Origin: a virus
Length of the DNA stretch: 22,856 bases
IMG/VR virus record: IMGVR_UViG_3300031991_000033
Direction: 5' to 3' (one strand)
Positions 4,012-22,856 of the stretch are shown in pieces. Position numbers and translations under genes: made by a program. Each line of letters starts with the position of its first letter. Position 1 is the stretch's first letter. The notes beneath the pieces are model-generated. The model ran no database searches, had not been told where the DNA came from, and was given only the letters and a program-made list of their open reading frames with translations.

Positions 4012-5472
4012 ATGCGTTTATCTAGTTACAACAACCTCGTTGAACACGAGGATGGTACGCTCCTCTGTAACCTAGTTACAGGTACGTTGATCGTTCTTCA
4101 ACCCAAAGCACTTCAAGAATATCGCCGCCTTGAAAACGGCGATTTCTCAAACACAAAGTTTGCAACCAAACTTGGTGGTATGGGATTTGTGGTTAATGAA
4201 GAAGACGAACGTGTCTCGATGCGTAAGAGATACGAAGAGATTGTTGAAGACTGCCGTACCAAACACTTCTCAATTGTTCTCACTGATCAGTGCAACCTTG
4301 GTTGCCACTACTGTTACGAAGATAAACAGCAGTGGATTAAGATGTCGCCAGAAACCACGCAAGAAGTACAAGACTTCTGCGAGAAGTTTTTGGATGCAAC
4401 TCCAACAACCTACCTTGGTGTGAGTTGGTATGGTGGTGAACCCACCATGAACCTTCCAGCCTTAACACAACTGTCGAAGTTCTTTAAGAAATACTGTGAC
4501 GAACATGGCATCCGTTTCCATCAACAGATGACAACGAATGGCACAAATTTCACAGACCAGATCGCTGATCTGGTCGCCACCGAACTCGGCATTCAAGATA
4601 TGCAGATCACGGTGGATGGTTTCAAAGAAGACCACGACAAAAGCCGTCCATTCTTGACATCCATGAGTGTTGACGAGATGTCGGATGTTCAGGTCGAACA
4701 ACGTAAGAAGCTTGACCCAACATTCTCGTTGCCTATTCTTGGTCAAGCACCACCTAAGCCCAAGCAGCGTTCGTCTTATGATGTCATCATGAAGGCGATT
4801 CCAAAACTTGTAGAGCGTGGCGTCTTTGTCAAAGTTCGCATGAACGTCAACATGGAAACCATCAAACGAGTTGATGCATTGCTTGAAGAATTCTACGAGA
4901 AAGGACTCTTCAGTCAGAATGAGAAAGGTGGTTTGGTTCACGTTTATGCCGCCCCGATTTTTGATGGTGGTTGTGGTAGCAACAACGAATGCTACTCACG
5001 CATGAGGATGCAGGACTTTGCCAAGGAAGTTTCACGTATCCGAGATTGGTATTTGGAGAAAAAGATCACACACTATGGTCATCAAAACAACCTCAAGTTT
5101 ACTGGCGAAACATGTACAGCCAATAAACGTTGGGAGTGGGTGATCAATCCAGATGGCACCTTAGCCAAATGCTGGCACCATGCCGCCGACCCAACTAAGT
5201 CTGTCGGACATGTGTCAGATATTGATCTGTTCTTTGATTATCGAACACTTGCTGGCGGCAACAAGTTTCATGCATTCAATCCGTTCACAAACGCTGAGTG
5301 TTATGATTGCCCCGTCTTGCCTATGTGCATGGGCGGCTGTAAAGCCAACAACAAGATCGAAACCGATGAGGATTTCGCTGACGGTTGTGCGACCACAAGA
5401 TTTACGTTGAAAGAAGAGATCACAATTCTCTATGAGTCTTCAAGAAGGCTGAAGAAATCTCAAGACTCTTAG
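4012..5472 (+). CDS. Radical SAM/SPASM-domain protein (peptide maturase-like)
   Basis: CNLGCHYC, WYGGEP and TTNG motifs; SPASM cysteines (TCTA...DGTLAKC...CYDCPVLPMCMGGC...C); about 80-aa N-terminal extension. Confidence 0.93.
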   Translation: MRLSSYNNLVEHEDGTLLCNLVTGTLIVLQPKALQEYRRLENGDFSNTKFATKLGGMGFVVNEEDERVSMRKRYEEIVEDCRTKHFSIVLTDQCNLGCHYCYEDKQQWIKMSPETTQEVQDFCEKFLDATPTTYLGVSWYGGEPTMNLPALTQLSKFFKKYCDEHGIRFHQQMTTNGTNFTDQIADLVATELGIQDMQITVDGFKEDHDKSRPFLTSMSVDEMSDVQVEQRKKLDPTFSLPILGQAPPKPKQRSSYDVIMKAIPKLVERGVFVKVRMNVNMETIKRVDALLEEFYEKGLFSQNEKGGLVHVYAAPIFDGGCGSNNECYSRMRMQDFAKEVSRIRDWYLEKKITHYGHQNNLKFTGETCTANKRWEWVINPDGTLAKCWHHAADPTKSVGHVSDIDLFFDYRTLAGGNKFHAFNPFTNAECYDCPVLPMCMGGCKANNKIETDEDFADGCATTRFTLKEEITILYESSRRLKKSQDS

Positions 5473-6763
5473 TGCGTCTCGTTTCTTTGTGAAAAAACTC
5501 GGAAGCTGCCGATCTTCTTATTGAAATCGGCAGCTTTCTTTTTTCGTCAGATGTAAGAATCCAACTCAAAACCCGTACAAGTTCTGTCTTCTGCTCATCT
5601 GACATTTCTTCATCCATAAGATAGATGAACTCAATGCTCTGGTCTTCGGCTTGGTGAATCCTATAACTCATCCGTTCATTTCCGAACGGATTCTTATTCA
5701 GTTCGAGTTTATTGACAAACCTTCCGCCTCGAAGGAAACAAGCTAAGAATTCAGAAATGAATCGACCGGAAACGGCTCGATTGTCAACATAAATCGCCTC
5801 GACCTGTTTGCCAAAGAACTTGGTGAAATAGTTCCCATATAAGCCGCACGAACACATACCTTTTTCAATCAAACCATTATCGTTGTTGTAATAGCGAATG
5901 AACGGCATAGCTTCATTATTTAGGTCTGTCGAGACTAGACGACCGTCAACTTCTTCCAAATAGCAAAACTCATCATAGATGTGTTTGCGACCATGACAGC
6001 ATTCAAACCAAGACATACCGCCGTCCCAACAGATCATTTTGTCAATTGCTTTTGTAAACATTTTGTTGGCGATTTCACGCACTCTCTCTGAGAGGGTTTC
6101 CTCACTCAATATAACAGGGCAGTTGAATTTCAAGTTCGGTGCGGCTTGATGCACCACTTCAAGGATGGACGGCGAACATCGTACAAATTTTGGATTCAGG
6201 GCGAGTGCTCTTTCAAGGTTCAAATCCCAGATGTATTGGCTGAATCTTTTTTCGACGTTGTAAAAGAAGTGATATGTCTCGTTGTGCCCGCCAACGGGTA
6301 GGTATTGACTCGGACCGAATATGGAGCAAAACCGGTCGTTTGTAATTGGATGATCGCCATACAAGTGGTGTACACCATTACTCACAAAAGGTTCTGATGA
6401 GTGACTAAAGTACAATACCTTGCCCGGCTCGGTCATTCCATGTGATTGTTCGATCTTCCAAATATGGTGATCTTCCATAATTGGTTGTTGCGGCAGCGAA
6501 TAGCAATACTTCCTGTCTTCTAATCGCAAGCTTGTCGTACCAGAAGTGAATAGCTCCAAGTATTGGCTTGGCTCTAAATCCCTTAACTTTGGTATGTGAT
6601 TCAACCGTTTTCCAAGCTCGGAATTGTGGATTTTCAGGATTCGAGTCAAACGCAATTCTTGATAACGGTTCAGGTCGGACTCATTGCGAAACAAGGTTAT
6701 CGACCGGTTTTTTAGCCAGTTTTCCCATGATGCAAACAAGTCTAATCCAAAATCAAAAAGCAT
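5420..6763 (-). CDS. Phenylacetate-CoA ligase/CapK-like adenylate-forming enzyme
   Basis: TSGTT P-loop, SEETL, STDLNNEAMPFIRY. Overlaps the rSAM 3' end convergently by 53 nt. Confidence 0.8.
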   Translation of the reverse strand: MLFDFGLDLFASWENWLKNRSITLFRNESDLNRYQELRLTRILKIHNSELGKRLNHIPKLRDLEPSQYLELFTSGTTSLRLEDRKYCYSLPQQPIMEDHHIWKIEQSHGMTEPGKVLYFSHSSEPFVSNGVHHLYGDHPITNDRFCSIFGPSQYLPVGGHNETYHFFYNVEKRFSQYIWDLNLERALALNPKFVRCSPSILEVVHQAAPNLKFNCPVILSEETLSERVREIANKMFTKAIDKMICWDGGMSWFECCHGRKHIYDEFCYLEEVDGRLVSTDLNNEAMPFIRYYNNDNGLIEKGMCSCGLYGNYFTKFFGKQVEAIYVDNRAVSGRFISEFLACFLRGGRFVNKLELNKNPFGNERMSYRIHQAEDQSIEFIYLMDEEMSDEQKTELVRVLSWILTSDEKRKLPISIRRSAASEFFHKETRRTKSLEISSAFLKTHREL

Positions 6764-6768
6764 ACCGT

Positions 6769-6774
6769 TATATA
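6769..6774. promoter_or_regulatory. Palindromic TATATA centred between two divergent start codons
   Basis: Exactly 5 nt from each start codon (6763 minus, 6780 plus); no room for a typical RBS. Confidence 0.45.
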
Positions 6775-6779
6775 CCTAC

Positions 6780-7388
6780 ATGCAGAACTACATTGAATAT
6801 GATCGACTGGTGAAATATCGTGAAAAAGACCTAATCGACAAACCGATTGTCATCTATGTCCACCGTATTAAAGAGGACATTGTTGCTTCTTTTCACAAAA
6901 GTATTTCCGAAGCACACACCACCGGGCAACCGGTGATCCCGATTGTTATTGACTCATTTGGGGGTTGTGCCTACGCCCTTCAGTCTTTGATCAGTGGTAT
7001 CAAGAACTCCAAACTTCCCGTTGCAACTATTGTAGAAGGCAAGGCGATGTCTTCTGGGGCGATTCTGTTTTCTTGTGGTACACCCGGTTACCGATATATG
7101 GGACCAGAGTCCACTCTGATGATACACGATGTATCCAGCACAGCGAACGGTAAAAGCGGAGAAGTAGAAGCTGATGCGATGGAGACGAAGAGAATCAACG
7201 AAACAATCCACAAAATGATGGCAAGAAGCTGTGGTCAACCAGAAGGTTACTTTCTCGACATGATCCATGAACGTGGTCACTCGGACTTATATCTGACTGC
7301 CAAAGAATGTCTGGCTCACCGTATCACAGATCATATACACATCCCAACACTAAGAACTTCGGTACAAGTAACGCATGAATTTCGTTGA
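6780..7388 (+). CDS. clpP: ClpP-like protease subunit
   Basis: IDSFGG, GKAMSSG (catalytic Ser), LMIHD (His) and DLYLTA (Asp). Confidence 0.88.
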   Translation: MQNYIEYDRLVKYREKDLIDKPIVIYVHRIKEDIVASFHKSISEAHTTGQPVIPIVIDSFGGCAYALQSLISGIKNSKLPVATIVEGKAMSSGAILFSCGTPGYRYMGPESTLMIHDVSSTANGKSGEVEADAMETKRINETIHKMMARSCGQPEGYFLDMIHERGHSDLYLTAKECLAHRITDHIHIPTLRTSVQVTHEFR

Positions 7389-8779: not shown

Positions 8780-8860
8780 GGCTCTGTGGTGGAATAGCAG
8801 ACACGCTGGTCTTAGAAACCAGTGCCGTAAGGCGTGCAGGTTCGAGTCCTGTCAGAGCTA
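8780..8860 (+). tRNA. tRNA-Leu(TAG), long variable arm
   Basis: Cloverleaf; CTGGT-CT TAG AA-ACCAG; TTCGAGT T-loop. Confidence 0.92.
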
Positions 8861-8861
8861 C

Positions 8862-9871: not shown

Positions 9872-9952
9872 CGCCTCGTGGTGGAATGGCAGACACGCCA
9901 GACTCAAAATCTGGTGCCGAAAGGCGTGTGGGTTCGAGTCCCACCGAGGCGA
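9872..9952 (+). tRNA. tRNA-Leu(CAA), long variable arm
   Basis: CCAGA-CT CAA AA-TCTGG; acceptor CGCCTCG/CGAGGCG. Confidence 0.92.
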
Positions 9953-9956
9953 CTGT

Positions 9957-10448
9957 ATGAAGTACCGACTCAAGATATTGAACATTGCATTGGTTCTAGT
10001 CTTAGTTTGTGCGTTCATATTGAAGATTGATTTCGGGCAACCGAAAAAAGTAACCGAACCTTCGGAAGATTCCGTTGTCCTTCAGTTACTCGAAGAGACA
10101 AACCAGTTCCGTAAGAAAAACCATCTTACAGAATTGACTCTCAACAAAAAGTTACTGCAAGCAGCCATGAAACACTCAGAGTGGATGGCGGCGAACGGTA
10201 AACTAGATCATACCGGCAAGAACAGAACAAGTCCTGCCGATAGGATCGATGCCGAAGGGTATAGTTGGTCAGCCTGTGCGGAGAATATCGCATGGAATTA
10301 CGAAACGCCTGAAACAGTAGTGCAAGGGTGGATTGGTTCCAGAGGGCATAGACAGAACATGCTCGGCAAATACACTGAAACCGGGTTTGGCTATGCAAAA
10401 TCGTCGTCTGGGGAATTGTATTGGACGGCGGTTTATGCAAAACCTTGA
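9957..10448 (+). CDS. CAP/SCP-domain protein with N-terminal signal or anchor
   Basis: NQFR, AAMKHSEWMA, LDH, AENIA, GWIGSRGHRQNML and YWTAVY. Confidence 0.9.
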   Translation: MKYRLKILNIALVLVLVCAFILKIDFGQPKKVTEPSEDSVVLQLLEETNQFRKKNHLTELTLNKKLLQAAMKHSEWMAANGKLDHTGKNRTSPADRIDAEGYSWSACAENIAWNYETPETVVQGWIGSRGHRQNMLGKYTETGFGYAKSSSGELYWTAVYAKP

Positions 10449-10839: not shown

Positions 10840-11119
10840 GTATCAGAACGGACCAAATCCTGATGGCACTTACAGTTTATGGTTGTGGAACGGAGACAAA
10901 GACCTGAAGGTTGGTGATTGGTATGGTGGAGCAAAAGTTGTTCGTATCATTCATCAATTCCAAGCTTTAGGAGAAGTACAAGTTTTGGATCGAGGTTACA
11001 AGGGGTACGTTACCTTTAACCGAGAGCCGGGGCTTATGTTGAAAGAGAATGAGCCAGACTTTGTAGAATGGCTTGAGAAGAATGCCCATGTGGTGAAATT
11101 GGCAGACACGCCAGCTTGA
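10793..11119 (+). CDS. Hypothetical protein; 3' end overlaps tRNA-Leu(GAG)
   Basis: AAGGA before ATG 10793; the stop lies in the anticodon loop. Confidence 0.6.
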   Translation: MNEAAVLTNEWIKSCEYQNGPNPDGTYSLWLWNGDKDLKVGDWYGGAKVVRIIHQFQALGEVQVLDRGYKGYVTFNREPGLMLKENEPDFVEWLEKNAHVVKLADTPA

Positions 11120-11167
11120 GGGGCTGGTGCCAGCAATGGCGTGGAGGTTCAAGTCCTCTCGTGGGCA
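11084..11167 (+). tRNA. tRNA-Leu(GAG), long variable arm
   Basis: CCAGC-TT GAG GG-GCTGG. Confidence 0.92.
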
Positions 11168-11171
11168 CTAT

Positions 11172-11944: not shown

Positions 11945-11987
11945 CTTCTCACGGTCTTTGGGATATCTATGTTCCAAAGGGGTGAGA

Positions 11988-12032
11988 CACCGCAAACCGG
12001 GTCAGGTCAGAAATGAAGCAGCCCTAGCGGTG
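11988..12032 (+). ncRNA. ffs: Minimal SRP (4.5S) RNA, helix 8/domain IV
   Basis: GGTCAGGTCA-GAAA-TGAAGCAGCC matches the E. coli motif GGUCAGGUCC-GGAA-GGAAGCAGCC with a compensatory pair; closed by caccgc/gcggtg. Confidence 0.8.
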
Positions 12033-12035
12033 AAT

Positions 12036-12108
12036 GGACAGTGAGCTAGTGTGGTCATAGCGTCGGACTGAAAATCCGAAGAAGTCGGTTCGATCCCGGC
12101 ACTGTCCA
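12036..12108 (+). tRNA. tRNA-Phe(GAA)
   Basis: TCGGA-CT GAA AA-TCCGA; GGACAGT/ACTGTCC acceptor. Confidence 0.9.
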
Positions 12109-12130
12109 CTACAACGTCAAGGAGAAAGAC

Positions 12131-12586
12131 ATGTTGCAAGCAATGAAGGCACAGATGGTTTTGGCAATGAAAGCCAAGAACGTCACCGAAAGAGACATTT
12201 TACGACTTGTGATTGGCGAGGTACAAAGTGCCGAAGCTAAACAAAACAAGTCGTTTACAGACGAACAAATTGAATCTGTAATTCGCAAGCAAATCAAAAG
12301 CAATGACGAAGCATTGACTTTCGTGCAAGCTGGCGATGAAAGACACACAAAGTTGCTGGATGAGAACGTGATTCTCAACAAGTTGCTTCCAGCGACTTTG
12401 AGTCAAGAAGAAATTGAAGCATTCTTCTTGAACTCAGACGGACCAGAATTCGAACAAATTCGTGATGCGAAGAATGATGGTCAAGCAACGGGTATCGCAA
12501 TGAAGGCTTTGAAAGCCGCTGACCAAAAGGTTCTCGGCGACGATGTAAAAGCAATTATTGCAAAGATTCGAAGCGAGATCGCCTAA
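12131..12586 (+). CDS. GatB/YqeY-domain protein
   Basis: AMKAK...LRLVIGEVQ...DEQIESVIRKQIK...LLPATLSQEEI. Confidence 0.85.
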   Translation: MLQAMKAQMVLAMKAKNVTERDILRLVIGEVQSAEAKQNKSFTDEQIESVIRKQIKSNDEALTFVQAGDERHTKLLDENVILNKLLPATLSQEEIEAFFLNSDGPEFEQIRDAKNDGQATGIAMKALKAADQKVLGDDVKAIIAKIRSEIA

Positions 12587-12635: not shown

Positions 12636-12704
12636 GGTGCGGTAGCTCAGTTGGTAGAGCACTGGACTGAAAATCCGGGTGTCGGCGGTTCGAGTCCGCC
12701 CCGT
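12636..12704 (+). tRNA. tRNA-Phe(GAA), 3' end displaced by inversion
   Basis: Canonical D, anticodon and T arms. The missing ACCA is on the minus strand at 13120-13123. Confidence 0.85.
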
Positions 12705-12772
12705 CGATGGGACTCGAACCCATAGCATCAGATATTCTGAGTATCTGTGGTCTACCAATTGCCTACGACGCC
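12702..12772 (-). tRNA. Short-variable-loop tRNA-Leu(CAG), 3' end displaced by inversion
   Basis: GGCGTCGTAGGCAATTGGTAGACCA-CAGATA-CT CAG AA-TATCTG-ATGCT-T arm. The missing last acceptor bases and discriminator (CCA) are at 13127-13129. Confidence 0.8.
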
Positions 12773-13429: not shown

Positions 13430-14074
13430 ATGAAAATCACAGCACTATCCGACCTGCACGGCTATCTGCCACCAATCGAAAACCCAACTGACTTGGTTTT
13501 GATTGCCGGTGATATCTGTGCTCACGGAAAACCCAGATACCAACTCAATTGGCTACGAGATCATTTCAAGCCTTGGCTTGAGAAGATTGATGCACCAGTG
13601 GTTGGTGTTGCCGGAAACCACGACTGGCCATTTTTTGGACAAGAGTATCCTTCCTTGAAGGAAGAAATCCAAAAGTTGGATTTGCTGTGGACTTACTTGG
13701 AAGACAGCGGAACCGAGATCAATGGGACCAAGATTTGGGGAACTCCTTGGCAACGAGAGTTCTACGATTGGGCTTTCAATCTCAAGGCACACGAACTTCC
13801 GGCAAAGTGGGCGTTGATCCCTGATGACACTGACATTTTGGTTTGTCATGGACCACCGTTCGGATTTGGCGACTTTGTAACTCGTGACAACGAGAACGTT
13901 GGATGTCCAGCGTTGCTCAGAAGGATCGAAGACATCAAGCCAAAACTGGTTGTTTTTGGTCACATTCATTGTGGTCACGGACACTGGAAGTATGACGGAG
14001 TTCAACTAGCAAACGTAACAGTGGTGAATGAGCAGTACCAACTGGTCTATCCGCCGTTCGAATACGAAATCTAG
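13430..14074 (+). CDS. Calcineurin-like metallophosphoesterase
   Basis: SDLHG, AGD, GNHD, HGPP and FGHIH. Confidence 0.9.
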   Translation: MKITALSDLHGYLPPIENPTDLVLIAGDICAHGKPRYQLNWLRDHFKPWLEKIDAPVVGVAGNHDWPFFGQEYPSLKEEIQKLDLLWTYLEDSGTEINGTKIWGTPWQREFYDWAFNLKAHELPAKWALIPDDTDILVCHGPPFGFGDFVTRDNENVGCPALLRRIEDIKPKLVVFGHIHCGHGHWKYDGVQLANVTVVNEQYQLVYPPFEYEI

Positions 14075-14850: not shown

Positions 14851-15143
14851 TGTTTTGGCGTCGTAGGCAACTTGGTAGACCACAGAAGCTCAAACCTTCT
14901 GATGCTATGGGTTCGAATCCCATCGACGCTACTGAACAAAACGAGAGAGCGAAAGCTATTCTCCAAGAATGGATCGATCAACAAGGTCATGAACGTTGTT
15001 GGTATTATCCAGACCTTTTCAATCGTTTGATTAAGGTATATGGCATTGAAACAACCAAAGAACCAAACTTACCACCACGATGCGAGTTTGAGGAAGGTTG
15101 TAGAAGATATCAGGAAGAAGAGTATGAACGAATTGATCGCTGA
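14850..15143 (+). CDS. Hypothetical protein; start lies before or within the tRNA
   Basis: The nearest in-frame ATGs are 14850 and 14907. The C-terminal part (QGHERCWYYPD) looks protein-like. Confidence 0.55.
   Translation: MFWRRRQLGRPQKLKPSDAMGSNPIDATEQNERAKAILQEWIDQQGHERCWYYPDLFNRLIKVYGIETTKEPNLPPRCEFEEGCRRYQEEEYERIDR
14857..14931 (+). tRNA. Short-variable-loop tRNA-Leu(CAA)
   Basis: CAGAAG-CT CAA AC-CTTCTG-ATGCT; A73. Confidence 0.82.
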
Positions 15144-15366: not shown

Positions 15367-15443
15367 GGCACGGTAGGCAATTATTGGTAGACCACAGACG
15401 TTGAGATCGTCTGATGCTCCGGGTTCGAGTCCCGGTCGTGCCA
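15367..15443 (+). tRNA. Short-variable-loop tRNA-Leu(GAG)
   Basis: CAGACG-TT GAG AT-CGTCTG-ATGCT; ends 16 nt before the LeuRS start. Confidence 0.82.
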
Positions 15444-15459
15444 CTTTTGGAGAAAGATC

Positions 15460-16755
15460 ATGAAGGGTTTTGACGCACCACCTTTGGACCCAAACATTGT
15501 AGTAATGTTCCCCTACCCTTCCGGTAAGGGATTGCACATGGGTCACTATTACAACTACGCCATCATCGACAGCTATTGTCGGTATTGGCGTCACCAAGGT
15601 AACAAAGTCTTCCAGCCATTTGGCTATGATGCGTTCGGCTTGCCTGCCGAGAACTACGCACGTCAAATTGGCGGTGATCCTCGTGAGATCACCTATGAAA
15701 ACATCGCCAACTTCCGTCGCCAGATGGAACAGATGAATACACAATTTGAAGAGAAGTTGGTGACTTCTGATCCGTCCTACTACAAGTGGACTCAATGGTT
15801 GTTCTTGAAGTTGAAAGAACATGATTTGGCTTACAAAGCCAATGGCTTGGTCAATTGGTGTCCATCCTGCGTCACTGTGTTGGCGAATGAGCAAGTGACA
15901 CCCGAAGAGCGTTGTGACCGTTGCGGCTCCGCTATTGACCAGCAAATGATGAATCAATGGTACTTCCGTATTACAAAATACCGAGACCGTTTGATCCAAA
16001 ATTTGGATTTCATCGACTATCCCGAAGGAACCATCAAACGTCAGCGTCAATGGTTGGAGAACTTGCATGATTGGTGTGTTAGTCGTCAACGCAAATGGGG
16101 TTGCCCAATCCCGATTGACGGCGAGGAAGACACTCTCGATACCTTCGTTGACAGCAGTTTCTACTACTTGAGGTACTTGACTGACTCAGAAGATGAGTTC
16201 TTGCCAGCCACAGCTTATCGTCCAGTGGATTTGTACGTCGGCGGTGCAGAACATGCTACGATGCATTTGATCTATGCACGATTCATTCACATGTTCTTGT
16301 ACGATATTGGCATTGTGCCACAAGAAGAACCGTTCGATAAGGTCATTCATCAAGGAATGATCACTAAAGACGGTTCCAAGATGGCGAAATCCAAAGGTAA
16401 TGTAGTCAATCCCGACGACTACAACTCAGACGAGTTGAGATTGGGTTTGATGTTCATTGGTCCTTATTTTGAAGGCGGTGATTGGAACGAACAGTCCATT
16501 CGTGGAGTTCAGAAATTCTTGCGGAAGTTCAGCAAGTGGTTGGAGTCTGCTTCGGGAACTGGCTTGGATTTGGATATGACAGAATTGAAGAATAAGATCG
16601 ACTCCAATGTTCGATCATTCAAATTCAATTTGGTTGTAAGCAACTTCATGAAGTTCTTGAATGAGAACAAAGGTAAAACCATTTCGTTCAAGACTCGATA
16701 CGAGTTGATGAACTTGTTTGGGTGTTTTGCACCCGGATATTTGGAGAAAATCTGA
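15460..16755 (+). CDS. leuS: Minimal leucyl-tRNA synthetase (431 aa)
   Basis: MFPYPSG-LHMGH, GYDAFGLPAEN, WCPSC..CDRC, DWCVSRQRKWG, DTFVDSS, YVGGAEHA and KMAKSKGN. Confidence 0.93.
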   Translation: MKGFDAPPLDPNIVVMFPYPSGKGLHMGHYYNYAIIDSYCRYWRHQGNKVFQPFGYDAFGLPAENYARQIGGDPREITYENIANFRRQMEQMNTQFEEKLVTSDPSYYKWTQWLFLKLKEHDLAYKANGLVNWCPSCVTVLANEQVTPEERCDRCGSAIDQQMMNQWYFRITKYRDRLIQNLDFIDYPEGTIKRQRQWLENLHDWCVSRQRKWGCPIPIDGEEDTLDTFVDSSFYYLRYLTDSEDEFLPATAYRPVDLYVGGAEHATMHLIYARFIHMFLYDIGIVPQEEPFDKVIHQGMITKDGSKMAKSKGNVVNPDDYNSDELRLGLMFIGPYFEGGDWNEQSIRGVQKFLRKFSKWLESASGTGLDLDMTELKNKIDSNVRSFKFNLVVSNFMKFLNENKGKTISFKTRYELMNLFGCFAPGYLEKI

Positions 16756-17153
16756 TGTCTCAGTGGATGTGTGAACTTTGTTTCCCAACCGGTGTTGAGT
16801 TAGGCGTCGTACTGCCGGGTTATTCCTTGATGCTTCTCAATGAGCAGTATCACCTTCTGGGTGGTCAGGGACACAATGGTCACATTTTGTTGACCTTCAA
16901 TCACCGTCCATTTCCAGACCCCGATCCAGAATCCGAAAGCACGGATCAGGAAGTGAACGCTTTGAGTGATCTGTGGCTGGAACACGTCTTGGAGCCAATC
17001 AGGAACTTAAAGCTTTCGCCTCAAGATGGTCACGATATCGTCGAGTCGGCAAAGGAATTCGGTTGGCATTACGAAAATTGCAACTTCGATTACTGGTTGG
17101 CTGACCGCTGTGGCGTGGTTGCTGCCGAATGGGAGAAGTCAAATGAAGGATGA
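16755..17153 (+). CDS. Hypothetical protein
   Basis: TGATG coupling to leuS. Confidence 0.7.
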   Translation: MSQWMCELCFPTGVELGVVLPGYSLMLLNEQYHLLGGQGHNGHILLTFNHRPFPDPDPESESTDQEVNALSDLWLEHVLEPIRNLKLSPQDGHDIVESAKEFGWHYENCNFDYWLADRCGVVAAEWEKSNEG

Positions 17154-17661
17154 TTTGTACTACCAAATGGTTGCCAAGTTCTACGAGGGCAAATTTGCCA
17201 AACGTAGCGGCGTGCCTTACATGAACCACATTGATGAAGGTATGGTCTTGTGCGATCATTTGGGGTATGATCTATATGTGAAACGAGCTTTTTGTCTTCA
17301 TCCATTGTTCCAAGCTGATGAAGCATTGGCTGGGATTAAACAATGGGAGCGAGTCGCAGACACGATTTTTGTTGACGAATTCGATGCTTATGTTATGATG
17401 CTCGTGATGGAGTACCGCAACAAGGCGAATGGGTATTTGTCGAACAAAGACAAAAAGGTTGAAGACATCAGTCTGAGTCCTTTGGAACAAGTCAATCAGA
17501 TGCTTGTCGTGGACAAGGTTCAGAACAGGAAGGACTTCGAGAAATATCACTTCGGCAGTCATCCTCGTTCTTTCCAGTTGAACACATATTTTCACAACTG
17601 GTTACAAAGATTGGGAATCTCCGAGGATAAATATCAAGAGTTGAAAGCTTTAATAGATTGA
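17143..17661 (+). CDS. Hypothetical protein, N-terminus resembling RelA/SpoT-type HD hydrolases
   Basis: KRSGVPYMNHI and VVDKVQNR, but HP in place of HD. Confidence 0.6.
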   Translation: MKDDLYYQMVAKFYEGKFAKRSGVPYMNHIDEGMVLCDHLGYDLYVKRAFCLHPLFQADEALAGIKQWERVADTIFVDEFDAYVMMLVMEYRNKANGYLSNKDKKVEDISLSPLEQVNQMLVVDKVQNRKDFEKYHFGSHPRSFQLNTYFHNWLQRLGISEDKYQELKALID

Positions 17662-17664
17662 CAT

Positions 17665-17738
17665 GGCACCGTAGGCAACCGGTAGACCACTTGGACTTAA
17701 AATCCGAGATGCTGAGGGTTTGATCCCCTCCGGTGCTA
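17665..17738 (+). tRNA. Short-variable-loop tRNA-Leu(TAA)
   Basis: CTTGGA-CT TAA AA-TCCGAG-ATGCT; atypical T-loop TTTGATC. Confidence 0.78.
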
Positions 17739-17817
17739 CTCACAACAATAAGCTCAGACAAAAGGCTATCTTGTTGCAGACTGAAAGCCTCTGAGAAGCA
17801 ACTGTTGTGACCCCAAC

Positions 17818-17854
17818 GAAAAAGGCGTCCTGATTTGATCAGGACGCCTTTTTC
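17818..17854. terminator. Bidirectional intrinsic terminator closing the tRNA island
   Basis: aaaaaggcgtcctgat-ttg-atcaggacgccttttt between convergent units. Confidence 0.9.
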
Positions 17855-21836: not shown

Positions 21837-22856
21837 ATGAAGGGTATTATCCTAGCAGGAGGTTTGGGGACTCGTTTGCATCCTTTGACCAAAGTAACCA
21901 ACAAGTGCTTGCTCCCAATTTACAACAAGCCAATGATCTACTATCCAATCCAATTATAATGGTAGACGCCGGAATGGATGACATCCTTCTGGTATGCGGC
22001 GGCAACTCGGTTGGAGAGTTTCTACGGGTGCTCGGAAACGGTGAAGAGTTTGGACTAAAGGGTCTAACCTATCGAGTTCAGAGCGAGCCACGAGGTATCG
22101 CCGATGCTCTCAGTTTGGCGGAAGATTGGGCTGGCGACGACAGCATTTGCGTATTGTTGTCTGACAACATCTTTGAAGACAACATTAAGCCTGCTGTAGA
22201 TCGGTTTGTTTCTGGTGCTCAGGTATTTCTATCGAAGGTCGCACATCCAGAACATTACGGTGTTGCAGAAATTGCAGCCAATGATCAAGTTGTTTCGATT
22301 GTCGAAAAGCCAAAACAACCCAAGTCGAATTGGGCTGTTACCGGCTTGTACATGTACGACAACACAGTCTGGGATTTCATTAAGACTCTTGAGCCATCGG
22401 CTCGTGGTGAACTTGAAATCACAGACGTGAACAACCATTACTTGCGTGAAGGTCAGTTACAAGCTCATAAACTCACTGGCTGGTGGGCTGACTGTGGTGA
22501 AAACTTTGACGGTTATCTTGACGCTTGCAACAAAGTACAAAGTTGGGAAACCAAAAAGAAGTGTACTGGATTTCCACAAGACGACGAGTATTCAATTCAT
22601 CAGGGATCGCCTTGTGAAGCAAATCTTGAAAGCTATTACAATGCACAGTTCGTTCAGAACGAGCGTCTTGAAGATCGATGCTTTGATGGCAAGACTGTTG
22701 GATATGACAGTGTGAGTCACACGCCATTCATAAGCGGCACGATGACTGGTACTGTGTATCAAGGAAAAGTTGCGATTCAAACGTTTGTTGTTGACACCAA
22801 GGGAGAATTTGTGTTTACTGAGATTGGTGTTCCAAATGTTAAAGCCTTGAAGGGTT
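21837..22856 (+). CDS. rmlA: Glucose-1-phosphate thymidylyltransferase-like (RmlA/SpsI) protein, frameshifted at about 21957, with C-terminal extension running off window
   Basis: [38 protein letters not shown], then from 21959 ..[41 protein letters not shown]. Confidence 0.85.

Follow-up and report, generated by a model that had tools for sequence, protein, structure and literature searches.

A predicted half-size leucyl-tRNA synthetase encoded among tRNA-Leu genes of large phages, with leucine almost confined to one codon

The last 22.9 kb (22,856 nucleotides, hereafter the window) of the 157,792-bp IMG/VR virus record IMGVR_UViG_3300031991_000033 contain an open reading frame (ORF; Table 1) whose product resembles a leucyl-tRNA synthetase (LeuRS) of about half the normal size. 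With a CheckV completeness estimate of ~31%, the record represents only part of a very large phage genome. The locus raises the question of whether so reduced a protein can still be a working synthetase and, if so, what a phage would gain from it. The original prediction, made from the window alone, was a natural near-minimal class Ia synthetase devoid of the editing domain (CP1), most of the next insertion, the leucine-specific domain and the C-terminal domain.

The bacterial LeuRS profile leuS_bact (NCBIfam TIGR00396) is the best family for the ORF product (384.6 bits, E = 9.5e-115), the rival profiles scoring far lower (ValRS, 149 bits; IleRS, 129 bits; MetRS also far behind), and Pfam finds class I synthetase domains in it. 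The LeuRS-specific blocks MFPYPSG, GxDAFGLPAEN and GG.EHA..HL.Y.RF are present and align to the Thermus thermophilus and Mycoplasma mobile enzymes, M. mobile LeuRS (3ziu) being the best solved-structure match by sequence (E = 2.5e-91). All motifs quoted in the original prediction, HMGH and KMAKS included, are found in the ORF. From these matches, the product is predicted to be the core of a bacterial-type class Ia LeuRS, natural and near-minimal.

Residue-level alignment to T. thermophilus LeuRS (Tth numbering) places the losses at domain boundaries: residues 12–200 correspond to Tth 36–225 and residues 201–219 to Tth 418–436, CP1 (~190 residues, ~Tth 226–417) being excised and some five residues, LENLH, standing in its stead; residues 215–302 correspond to Tth 487–578, the ~50 residues past the CP1 site (~Tth 437–486) being gone; and KDGS occupies the place of the leucine-specific domain (Tth 579–636), followed by KMAKS from Tth 637 onward. 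The chain also ends without the last ~87 residues of LeuRS, which form the tether and the C-terminal domain that binds the tRNA elbow. In the same way, only positions 33–221, 411–428, 484–569 and 604–711 of the 843 positions of leuS_bact are matched. No match to CP1 (PF13603) was detected in the whole 158-kb record or in G001, a complete 452-kb IMG/VR phage that carries a half-size LeuRS homologue, and profile positions 222–410 remain unmatched; PF13603 matches in G002 and in the huge phage LR745206.1 sit inside frames of 739–770 amino acids (aa), and the LR745206.1 frame resembles another class Ia synthetase. A split enzyme with its missing domains supplied in trans was considered and rejected, as a second LeuRS piece is absent from both the 158-kb record and G001.

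Prediction with 32 family members as input gave a confident structure model (pLDDT 87.9, pTM 0.88), whose bundle helices (residues 344–420, pLDDT 94–97) superpose on the LeuRS bundle. The best Foldseek match is M. mobile 3ziu (TM-score 0.91), and full-length LeuRSs reach 0.85–0.88. In VIA-align superpositions, model residues 8–431 correspond to Tth 29–791 (Z 36.7, root-mean-square deviation (rmsd) 2.2 Å over 422 residues), to Escherichia coli 4aq7 32–772 and to M. mobile 3ziu 34–552, with Z 35–37 and rmsd 2.1–2.8 Å over ~420 residues across the LeuRS structures superposed. The C-terminal domain has been assigned to Tth 817–876 and the E. coli tether to residues 787–798 (PMC3561953). The model stops at the equivalents of Tth 791 and E. 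coli 772 and so lacks the tether and the elbow-binding domain altogether; of the anticodon-binding helical bundle, which is nearly complete, it lacks just the final stretch. Alignment, profile and model thus agree on the domain losses that had been predicted, and, far from revealing the domains, both alignments leave the CP1, leucine-specific and C-terminal regions unmatched.

The same architecture recurs in more than 120 clusters recovered by a word-indexed search (401–441 aa, 64–87% identical, on contigs of up to 634 kb). Homologues occur in two huge phages, LR745206.1 (635 kb, 61% identity) and LR756501.1 (735 kb, a ~508-aa protein at 35% identity). We read motif conservation from an alignment of the 32 family members, whose C-termini all fall a few residues at most from a shared FAPGF motif. 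Invariant or nearly so are MFPYPSG, HxGH, QPFGYDAFGLPAEN, DWCVSRQR.WG, HQGM, K..KS.GN, GG.EHA..HL.YARF, E.DTLDTFV.SSFY.LRY and the bundle motif FKFN..VS.FM.F.N.NK, the family consensus of the class I signatures being HLGH and KMSKS. In the zinc knuckle, C134, C137 and C152 are invariant and position 155 is Cys or His. The acceptor-end peptide DWCVSRQR.WG, which includes the counterparts of E. coli R424 and R426, is invariant. Among seven homologous genes, the proportion of differing synonymous sites (pS) is 0.75–0.96, that is, saturated, that of non-synonymous sites (pN) is 0.08–0.33, and the ratio of the corresponding rates (dN/dS) is 0.015–0.07 where computable. Strong purifying selection acts on the family, which, together with the shared architecture and the near-invariant catalytic motifs, bears out the prediction of a natural near-minimal class Ia synthetase. 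One homologue (L011:6001-7246) is split into two frames near residue 193, whether by a genuine frameshift or by an error in sequencing.

In the window, L035, L036, L040, L041 and G001, the LeuRS gene is part of an array rich in tRNA-Leu or adjoins one, and next to it are genes for EF-Tu, RRF, AspRS-like proteins, a CCA-adding/PolyA_pol-type enzyme and RNA ligase; in three relatives, phage EF-Tu genes (L036:3020-4195, L041:7146-8318 and L035:11-337) stand no more than a few kb upstream of the half-size LeuRS gene. All 13 tRNA genes of the 158-kb record, as predicted by ARAGORN and Infernal, fall in the window, and 7 of them are tRNA-Leu, some with the canonical long variable arm and some with a short one (Table 1). 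L036 has short-arm tRNA-Leu for all five anticodons plus nine long-arm genes beside the LeuRS gene, and double tRNA-Leu sets also occur in L040, L041 and L006. These gene clusters thus repeatedly contain both kinds of tRNA-Leu and other translation genes.

Leucine stands out in the codon usage of the gene. TTG accounts for 33 of its 34 leucine codons (the remaining one is CTC) and for 32% of those in the other window ORFs; amino acid by amino acid, only leucine deviates from the local background (P = 2.6e-11; all others P > 0.006), a background made of mechanically called ORFs of at least 120 aa, some of which are perhaps not genes. The anomaly is again limited to leucine at L005 (18/18 TTG vs 14% in the background, P = 3e-16), at L009 (23/28 TTG, P = 5e-8) and at L038, where CTG holds the monopoly instead (24/26 leucine codons, P = 4e-12). 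The TTG form is also found in G001 (23/29), L008 (19/23) and others, with a tilt towards CTG in L036 and L039. Given the saturation of synonymous sites in other respects, the codon monopoly must be kept by selection. A general difference in codon usage or a recent transfer was rejected as the cause, since the other amino acids fit the local background. The half-size family is not poor in leucine, with a median of 7.4% vs 7.6% in full-length LeuRS.

Avoidance of the cognate residue goes further in other trimmed phage synthetases. A second, independently reduced phage LeuRS lineage (473–511 aa, lacking CP1 and the C-terminal domain; Table 1), whose closest full-length relatives are cyanobacterial LeuRSs, includes two proteins with no leucine at all, the 508-aa LR756501.1 enzyme and P0284; the other six members of this ~500-aa lineage contain 0.8–3.7% leucine (4–19 residues). 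LR745206.1 encodes a ValRS-like protein of 442 aa, roughly half the usual length, with 0 Val and 58 Ile. MetRS is trimmed as well, to cores of ~456 aa in LR745206.1, beside the ValRS-like gene, and 462 aa in G001; these MetRS cores and the EF-Tu, AspRS-like and RRF genes of the same phages use the residues in question normally. The closest published idea that we found is the low cognate bias of amino-acid biosynthetic enzymes, which are required when an amino acid is scarce and hold little of it (PMC4209129), but that bias is statistical and concerns cellular pathways, whereas the phage synthetases reach zero residues or, in the family of the window, act via codon choice. We found no description in the literature of truncated phage LeuRSs or of such a cognate-specific signature in synthetases (single-codon, Leu-free or Val-free), which does not prove that none exists.

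It makes sense for an enzyme to do without its own product only if translation depends on that product. This avoidance above all, together with the catalytic and acceptor-end motifs, the bundle, the array context and the trimming of ValRS and MetRS, points to a working synthetase. We consider it probable that the gene encodes an active LeuRS that does not edit and whose codon usage follows a cold-start design, such that the enzyme could be made when Leu-tRNA is scarce. Most likely the enzyme has kept both the activation of leucine and its transfer to tRNA-Leu, of the phage and possibly of the host, and would add Leu-tRNA charging capacity during infection, with no post-transfer proofreading. 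With leucine limited to UUG, its synthesis would need only a UUG-reading tRNA-Leu, and the synthetase could be translated while its own aminoacyl-tRNA is scarce or absent, be it through starvation, host defence or a shut-off induced by the phage. We infer aminoacylation without the C-terminal domain, the lack of editing and this physiological reason for the codon bias from the features described above. As the original prediction proposed, the enzyme may be error-prone and insensitive to benzoxaboroles, as would follow from the absence of CP1; to be resistant to drugs matters little for an enzyme that a phage encodes. If active, it would be the smallest natural LeuRS known to us, without editing, leucine-specific and elbow-binding domains, it would contradict the view that the C-terminal domain of bacterial LeuRS is indispensable, and it could offer a minimal scaffold for the way class Ia enzymes hold tRNA and possibly for the engineering of compact synthetase/tRNA pairs.

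A broader claim is one that we hold more tentatively: huge phages may possess a set of cold-start class Ia synthetases, stripped of proofreading and elbow-binding domains and makeable without their own aminoacyl-tRNA or with one isoacceptor only, among which the LeuRS of the window would charge tRNA-Leu with neither an elbow-binding nor a leucine-specific domain. The reason would be that charging of Leu and Val tRNAs collapses during infection; if so, huge phages would be prepared for a failure of Leu-tRNA and Val-tRNA charging through enzymes whose own synthesis does not depend on it. Huge phages have been reported to encode as many as 15 synthetases and as many as 67 tRNAs in one genome, and the synthetases were proposed to charge phage tRNA variants (Al-Shayeb et al., 2020; PMC7162821). 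The nearest homologues, in LR745206.1 and LR756501.1, belong to the records of that study, and the portion of its text that was searched mentions neither truncation, nor loss of editing or C-terminal domains, nor cognate avoidance.

A close counterpart is M. mobile LeuRS (3ZIU, 637 aa), in which, too, a short linker takes the place of CP1 and a tetrapeptide that of the leucine-specific domain (GKDG, against TKDG in the phage protein), and which ties with T. thermophilus LeuRS in VIA-align (Z 36.0 vs 36.7). The M. mobile GKDG tetrapeptide gives 55% activity to an E. coli LeuRS without its leucine-specific domain, and a short linker can substitute for CP1 (PMC3643597). Unlike the phage enzyme, M. 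mobile LeuRS keeps ~85 more C-terminal residues (tether and elbow domain), as well as ~40 more residues after the CP1 site and ~30 more at the N-terminus; it is the sole cellular LeuRS, whereas the phage LeuRS is auxiliary, and no single-codon bias has been reported for it. Neither retention of the C-terminal domain nor common descent with the Mycoplasma enzyme was found: the alignment stops at residue 552 of 637, and in a tree without M. mobile the phage family is a clade of its own, CP1 having been lost at several points of the tree.

Several observations weigh against an active enzyme with a cold-start design, beginning with the mechanically drawn background of the codon comparison. The score of 384.6 bits fails the curated leuS_bact equivalog cut-off (548.4 bits), because of the missing domains; the 508-aa LeuRS of LR756501.1 clears it (557.7 bits). 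Conservation is lacking at the positions that match E. coli R416 and R418, the residues in contact with A73 (N201, and H/R/Q/E/N at 203). E. coli and T. thermophilus LeuRS can no longer aminoacylate tRNA, nor edit after transfer, once their C-terminal domain is deleted, and point mutations in this domain abolish aminoacylation in Mycobacterium tuberculosis LeuRS (PMC3561953); even M. mobile LeuRS, the smallest characterised, retains it. An extra LeuRS may moreover lack charging activity, as Sulfolobaceae LeuRS-I binds tRNA and makes Leu-AMP with no aminoacylation (PMC9437257). Across 14 loci no neighbour was conserved as a candidate cofactor beyond AspRS and EF-Tu, in three loci each, and no compensating tRNA-binding module was found. 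The laboratory deletions (Tth 817–876; E. coli after ~787) remove the same part that the phage LeuRS lacks, and the strong selection on the natural form implies that it works in some other way.

One such way would be a tRNA-binding partner acting in trans, be it a phage protein such as the YqeY-like product of 12131-12586, a host factor or a second LeuRS copy. The need for the C-terminal domain in bacterial elbow binding and the presence of the YqeY-like gene in the same array favour this, and there are parallels: YqeY domains aid tRNA binding when fused to some GlnRS, and Aquifex LeuRS functions as two chains. Nevertheless, we regard such a dependence as unlikely, since no neighbouring gene recurs in the 14 loci beyond the AspRS and EF-Tu genes just mentioned, no homologue of the YqeY-like protein could be detected in the complete genome G001 or at six further loci, and no separate C-terminal or CP1 piece is present in G001 or in the record of the window.

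A LeuRS paralogue outside translation, similar to archaeal LeuRS-I or to other truncated proteins of synthetase type, which would activate leucine or bind tRNA-Leu for sensing, for sequestering tRNA or for another acceptor, is also rather unlikely. Loss of the C-terminal domain inactivates the model bacterial LeuRSs, the score lies under the equivalog cut-off, non-ribosomal use of aminoacyl-tRNA is known in phages (e.g., Mom), and LeuRS-I sets a precedent. LeuRS-I and haloarchaeal LeuRS2 are likewise extra copies, with a disrupted editing domain or an altered C-terminus (PMC9437257), but they differ in being archaeal-type, full-length, not phage-encoded and not placed in tRNA arrays, with no cognate-codon restriction known. 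The conserved tRNA-binding bundle and DWCVSRQR.WG peptide argue against this alternative, as do the position of the gene in tRNA-Leu arrays with translation genes, where no conserved gene for a partner acceptor is found nearby, and the leucine codon restriction and Leu- and Val-free relatives, which fit a decoding enzyme.

The short-arm tRNA-Leu genes suggest a private orthogonal pair, in which the LeuRS would have co-evolved with the flanking short-arm tRNA-Leu and charge only those. The four short-arm genes of the window are closely related (5-6-nt variable loop, A73, Leu-like D-loop) and they flank LeuRS here, as in L035, where a short tRNA-Leu(UAA) begins 4 nt past the LeuRS stop codon; in G001, LR745206.1 and G004 they stand elsewhere in the genome, and they are present in 9 of the 9 half-size- or short-LeuRS phage records with tRNA-Leu data. 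The missing domain contacts both the tRNA elbow and the long arm, and elbow stability matters less for the type I tRNA-Leu of Streptomyces coelicolor. There, a type I tRNA-Leu(CAA), whose variable loop has 5 nt, is present alongside type II tRNA-Leu and serves as a substrate of LeuRS (PMC6614811); this LeuRS is, however, full-length and needs its leucine-specific domain for type I, the very domain that the phage enzyme lacks. Private pairing was rejected because 3 of 4 large phages without a LeuRS homologue also carry short-arm tRNA-Leu, these controls having been scanned only around the best covariance-model matches, so that absence in LR756500.1 is not proven. The cultured Microbacterium phage Zooman (OK040793.1, 192 kb) has short tRNA-Leu at L042:6001-6547 with the signature of those in the window (GTAGGCAA..GACCAC..GATGCT), and further short genes lie at 402643-402801 in LR756502.1 and 590132-590292 in LR756504.1; no LeuRS homologue was found in the whole record of any of the three. 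Since the type I tRNA-Leu of S. coelicolor is served by a full-length enzyme and long-arm tRNA-Leu occur in the same arrays, the private pair is quite improbable. Short-arm tRNA-Leu is thus a feature of large phages in general, with no specific tie to the half-size LeuRS, which is a useful negative.

A decaying fragment or an assembly artefact, to which the half length and the frameshift-split L011 homologue might point, has a negligible chance of being right given more than 120 intact clusters of the same length, dN/dS of at most 0.07, catalytic motifs kept, a compact and confident fold and identical C-terminal ends in the family, in line with the argument of the original prediction against decay.

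With the active synthetase as the preferred reading, the origin of its reduction can be considered. An exhaustive search of representatives gave a graded size series: full-length LeuRS, CP1-less forms with the C-terminus (569–706 aa), forms lacking both CP1 and the C-terminus (499–530 aa) and the ~420–430-aa form. In a FastTree phylogeny of the shared core (423 columns, approximate likelihood, midpoint-rooted, without named taxa and with M. mobile left out), the half-size family is one clade (support 1.0) on a long stem, with two CP1-less forms that still have the C-terminal domain as sisters (support 0.82). The 508-aa enzyme of the 735-kb phage is placed elsewhere (support 0.98 with P0256), and other CP1-less LeuRSs pair with full-length enzymes. 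As the CP1-less forms are scattered among full-length ones, domain loss occurred several times. Nested in the half-size clade, the metagenomic P0122 (530 aa) has a 115-aa remnant exactly at the CP1 insertion point, which points either to a transitional stage of editing-domain erosion or to repeated loss within the clade.

Table 1. Features of the window and reduced synthetases of related phages (window coordinates unless a locus is given).
Feature	Position	Strand	Remarks
Half-size LeuRS coding sequence (predicted), 431 aa	15460..16755	+	ATG start; catalytic Rossmann core with ZN1 knuckle, plus the greater part of the helical bundle that binds the anticodon
Shine-Dalgarno-like GGAGA	15449..15453	+	7 nt before LeuRS ATG
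HIGH signature HMGH	15535..15546	+	residues 26-29
ZN1 zinc knuckle CxxC...CxxC	15859..15924	+	residues 134-155
CP1 deletion junction QRQW-LENLH-DWCVSRQRKWG	16051..16101	+
Second junction PIPIDGEEDTLDTF	16105..16146	+	~50 residues (Tth 437-486) gone
TKDGS spacer, then KMSKS-type loop KMAKS	16363..16392	+	spacer in place of leucine-specific domain; KMAKS residues 307-311
Helical anticodon-binding bundle	16489..16752	+	residues ~344-431; basic, isoelectric point 9.7
tRNA-Leu(UAG), canonical long arm	8780..8861	+
tRNA-Leu(CAA), canonical long arm	9872..9953	+
tRNA-Leu(GAG), canonical long arm	11084..11168	+
tRNA-Leu(CAA), short variable arm (type I), 76 nt	14857..14932	+	A73; reads UUG
tRNA-Leu(GAG), short variable arm, 78 nt	15367..15444	+	15 nt before LeuRS gene
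tRNA-Leu(UAA), short variable arm, 75 nt	17665..17739	+	downstream of LeuRS gene
tRNA-Leu(CAG), fourth short-arm gene	12698..12772	-	two G.G mismatches atop acceptor stem
Terminator-like hairpin	17818..17854	+	17-bp stem, then T-rich tail; after tRNA-Leu(UAA)
YqeY-like (GatB C-terminal-like) ORF, 151 aa	12131-12586	+	inside tRNA array
Calcineurin-like phosphoesterase	735-1829	-
Radical SAM	4012-5472
ClpP-like protease	6684-7388
CAP/cysteine-rich secretory family	9957-10448
Calcineurin-like phosphoesterase	13430-14074
Nucleotidyl transferase	21905-22855
Second reduced LeuRS lineage	L006:7983-9506 (LR756501.1)		also P0284, P0256, P0280-P0286
ValRS-like protein, 442 aa	L043:2879-4207	-	in LR745206.1

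Some tRNA genes of the window appear damaged. The minus-strand tRNA-Leu(CAG) is probably a damaged copy; within 12640-12772, it and a plus-strand tRNA-Phe-like gene overlap at their 3' ends and both lose the last pairs of the acceptor stem, which looks like a rearrangement scar with two damaged tRNA genes. Unusual tRNA calls were also obtained in related huge phages, at L005:10513-10586, G001 80119-80195 and LR756504.1 281045-281120, two with four-base anticodons (gtag, tcta) and one an amber-suppressor-type tRNA(CUA).

As for signals and neighbours in the window, no sigma-70-like promoter was found upstream of the LeuRS gene, the scan giving no more sites than shuffled sequence, and the hairpin that follows tRNA-Leu(UAA) is possibly the end of a transcription unit. 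A leucine-rich leader-peptide attenuator was rejected, since mini-ORFs with at least 5 Leu in 8 codons are absent upstream of the array and of the gene, the lone match in the window lying inside the ClpP-like ORF region. The ORFs downstream of LeuRS (16722-17153 and 17026-17661) have no Pfam family, and most small ORFs of the window match no family. At 11966-12058 (+), a match to the bacterial small signal recognition particle (SRP) RNA scores 41.4 bits vs the Rfam gathering score of 40 bits, with a well-matched core (GGUCAGGUCAGAAAUGAAGCAGCC), a poor distal stem and a 3' end that overlaps tRNA-Phe (12036-12109); it is possibly a phage-encoded 4.5S-like RNA.

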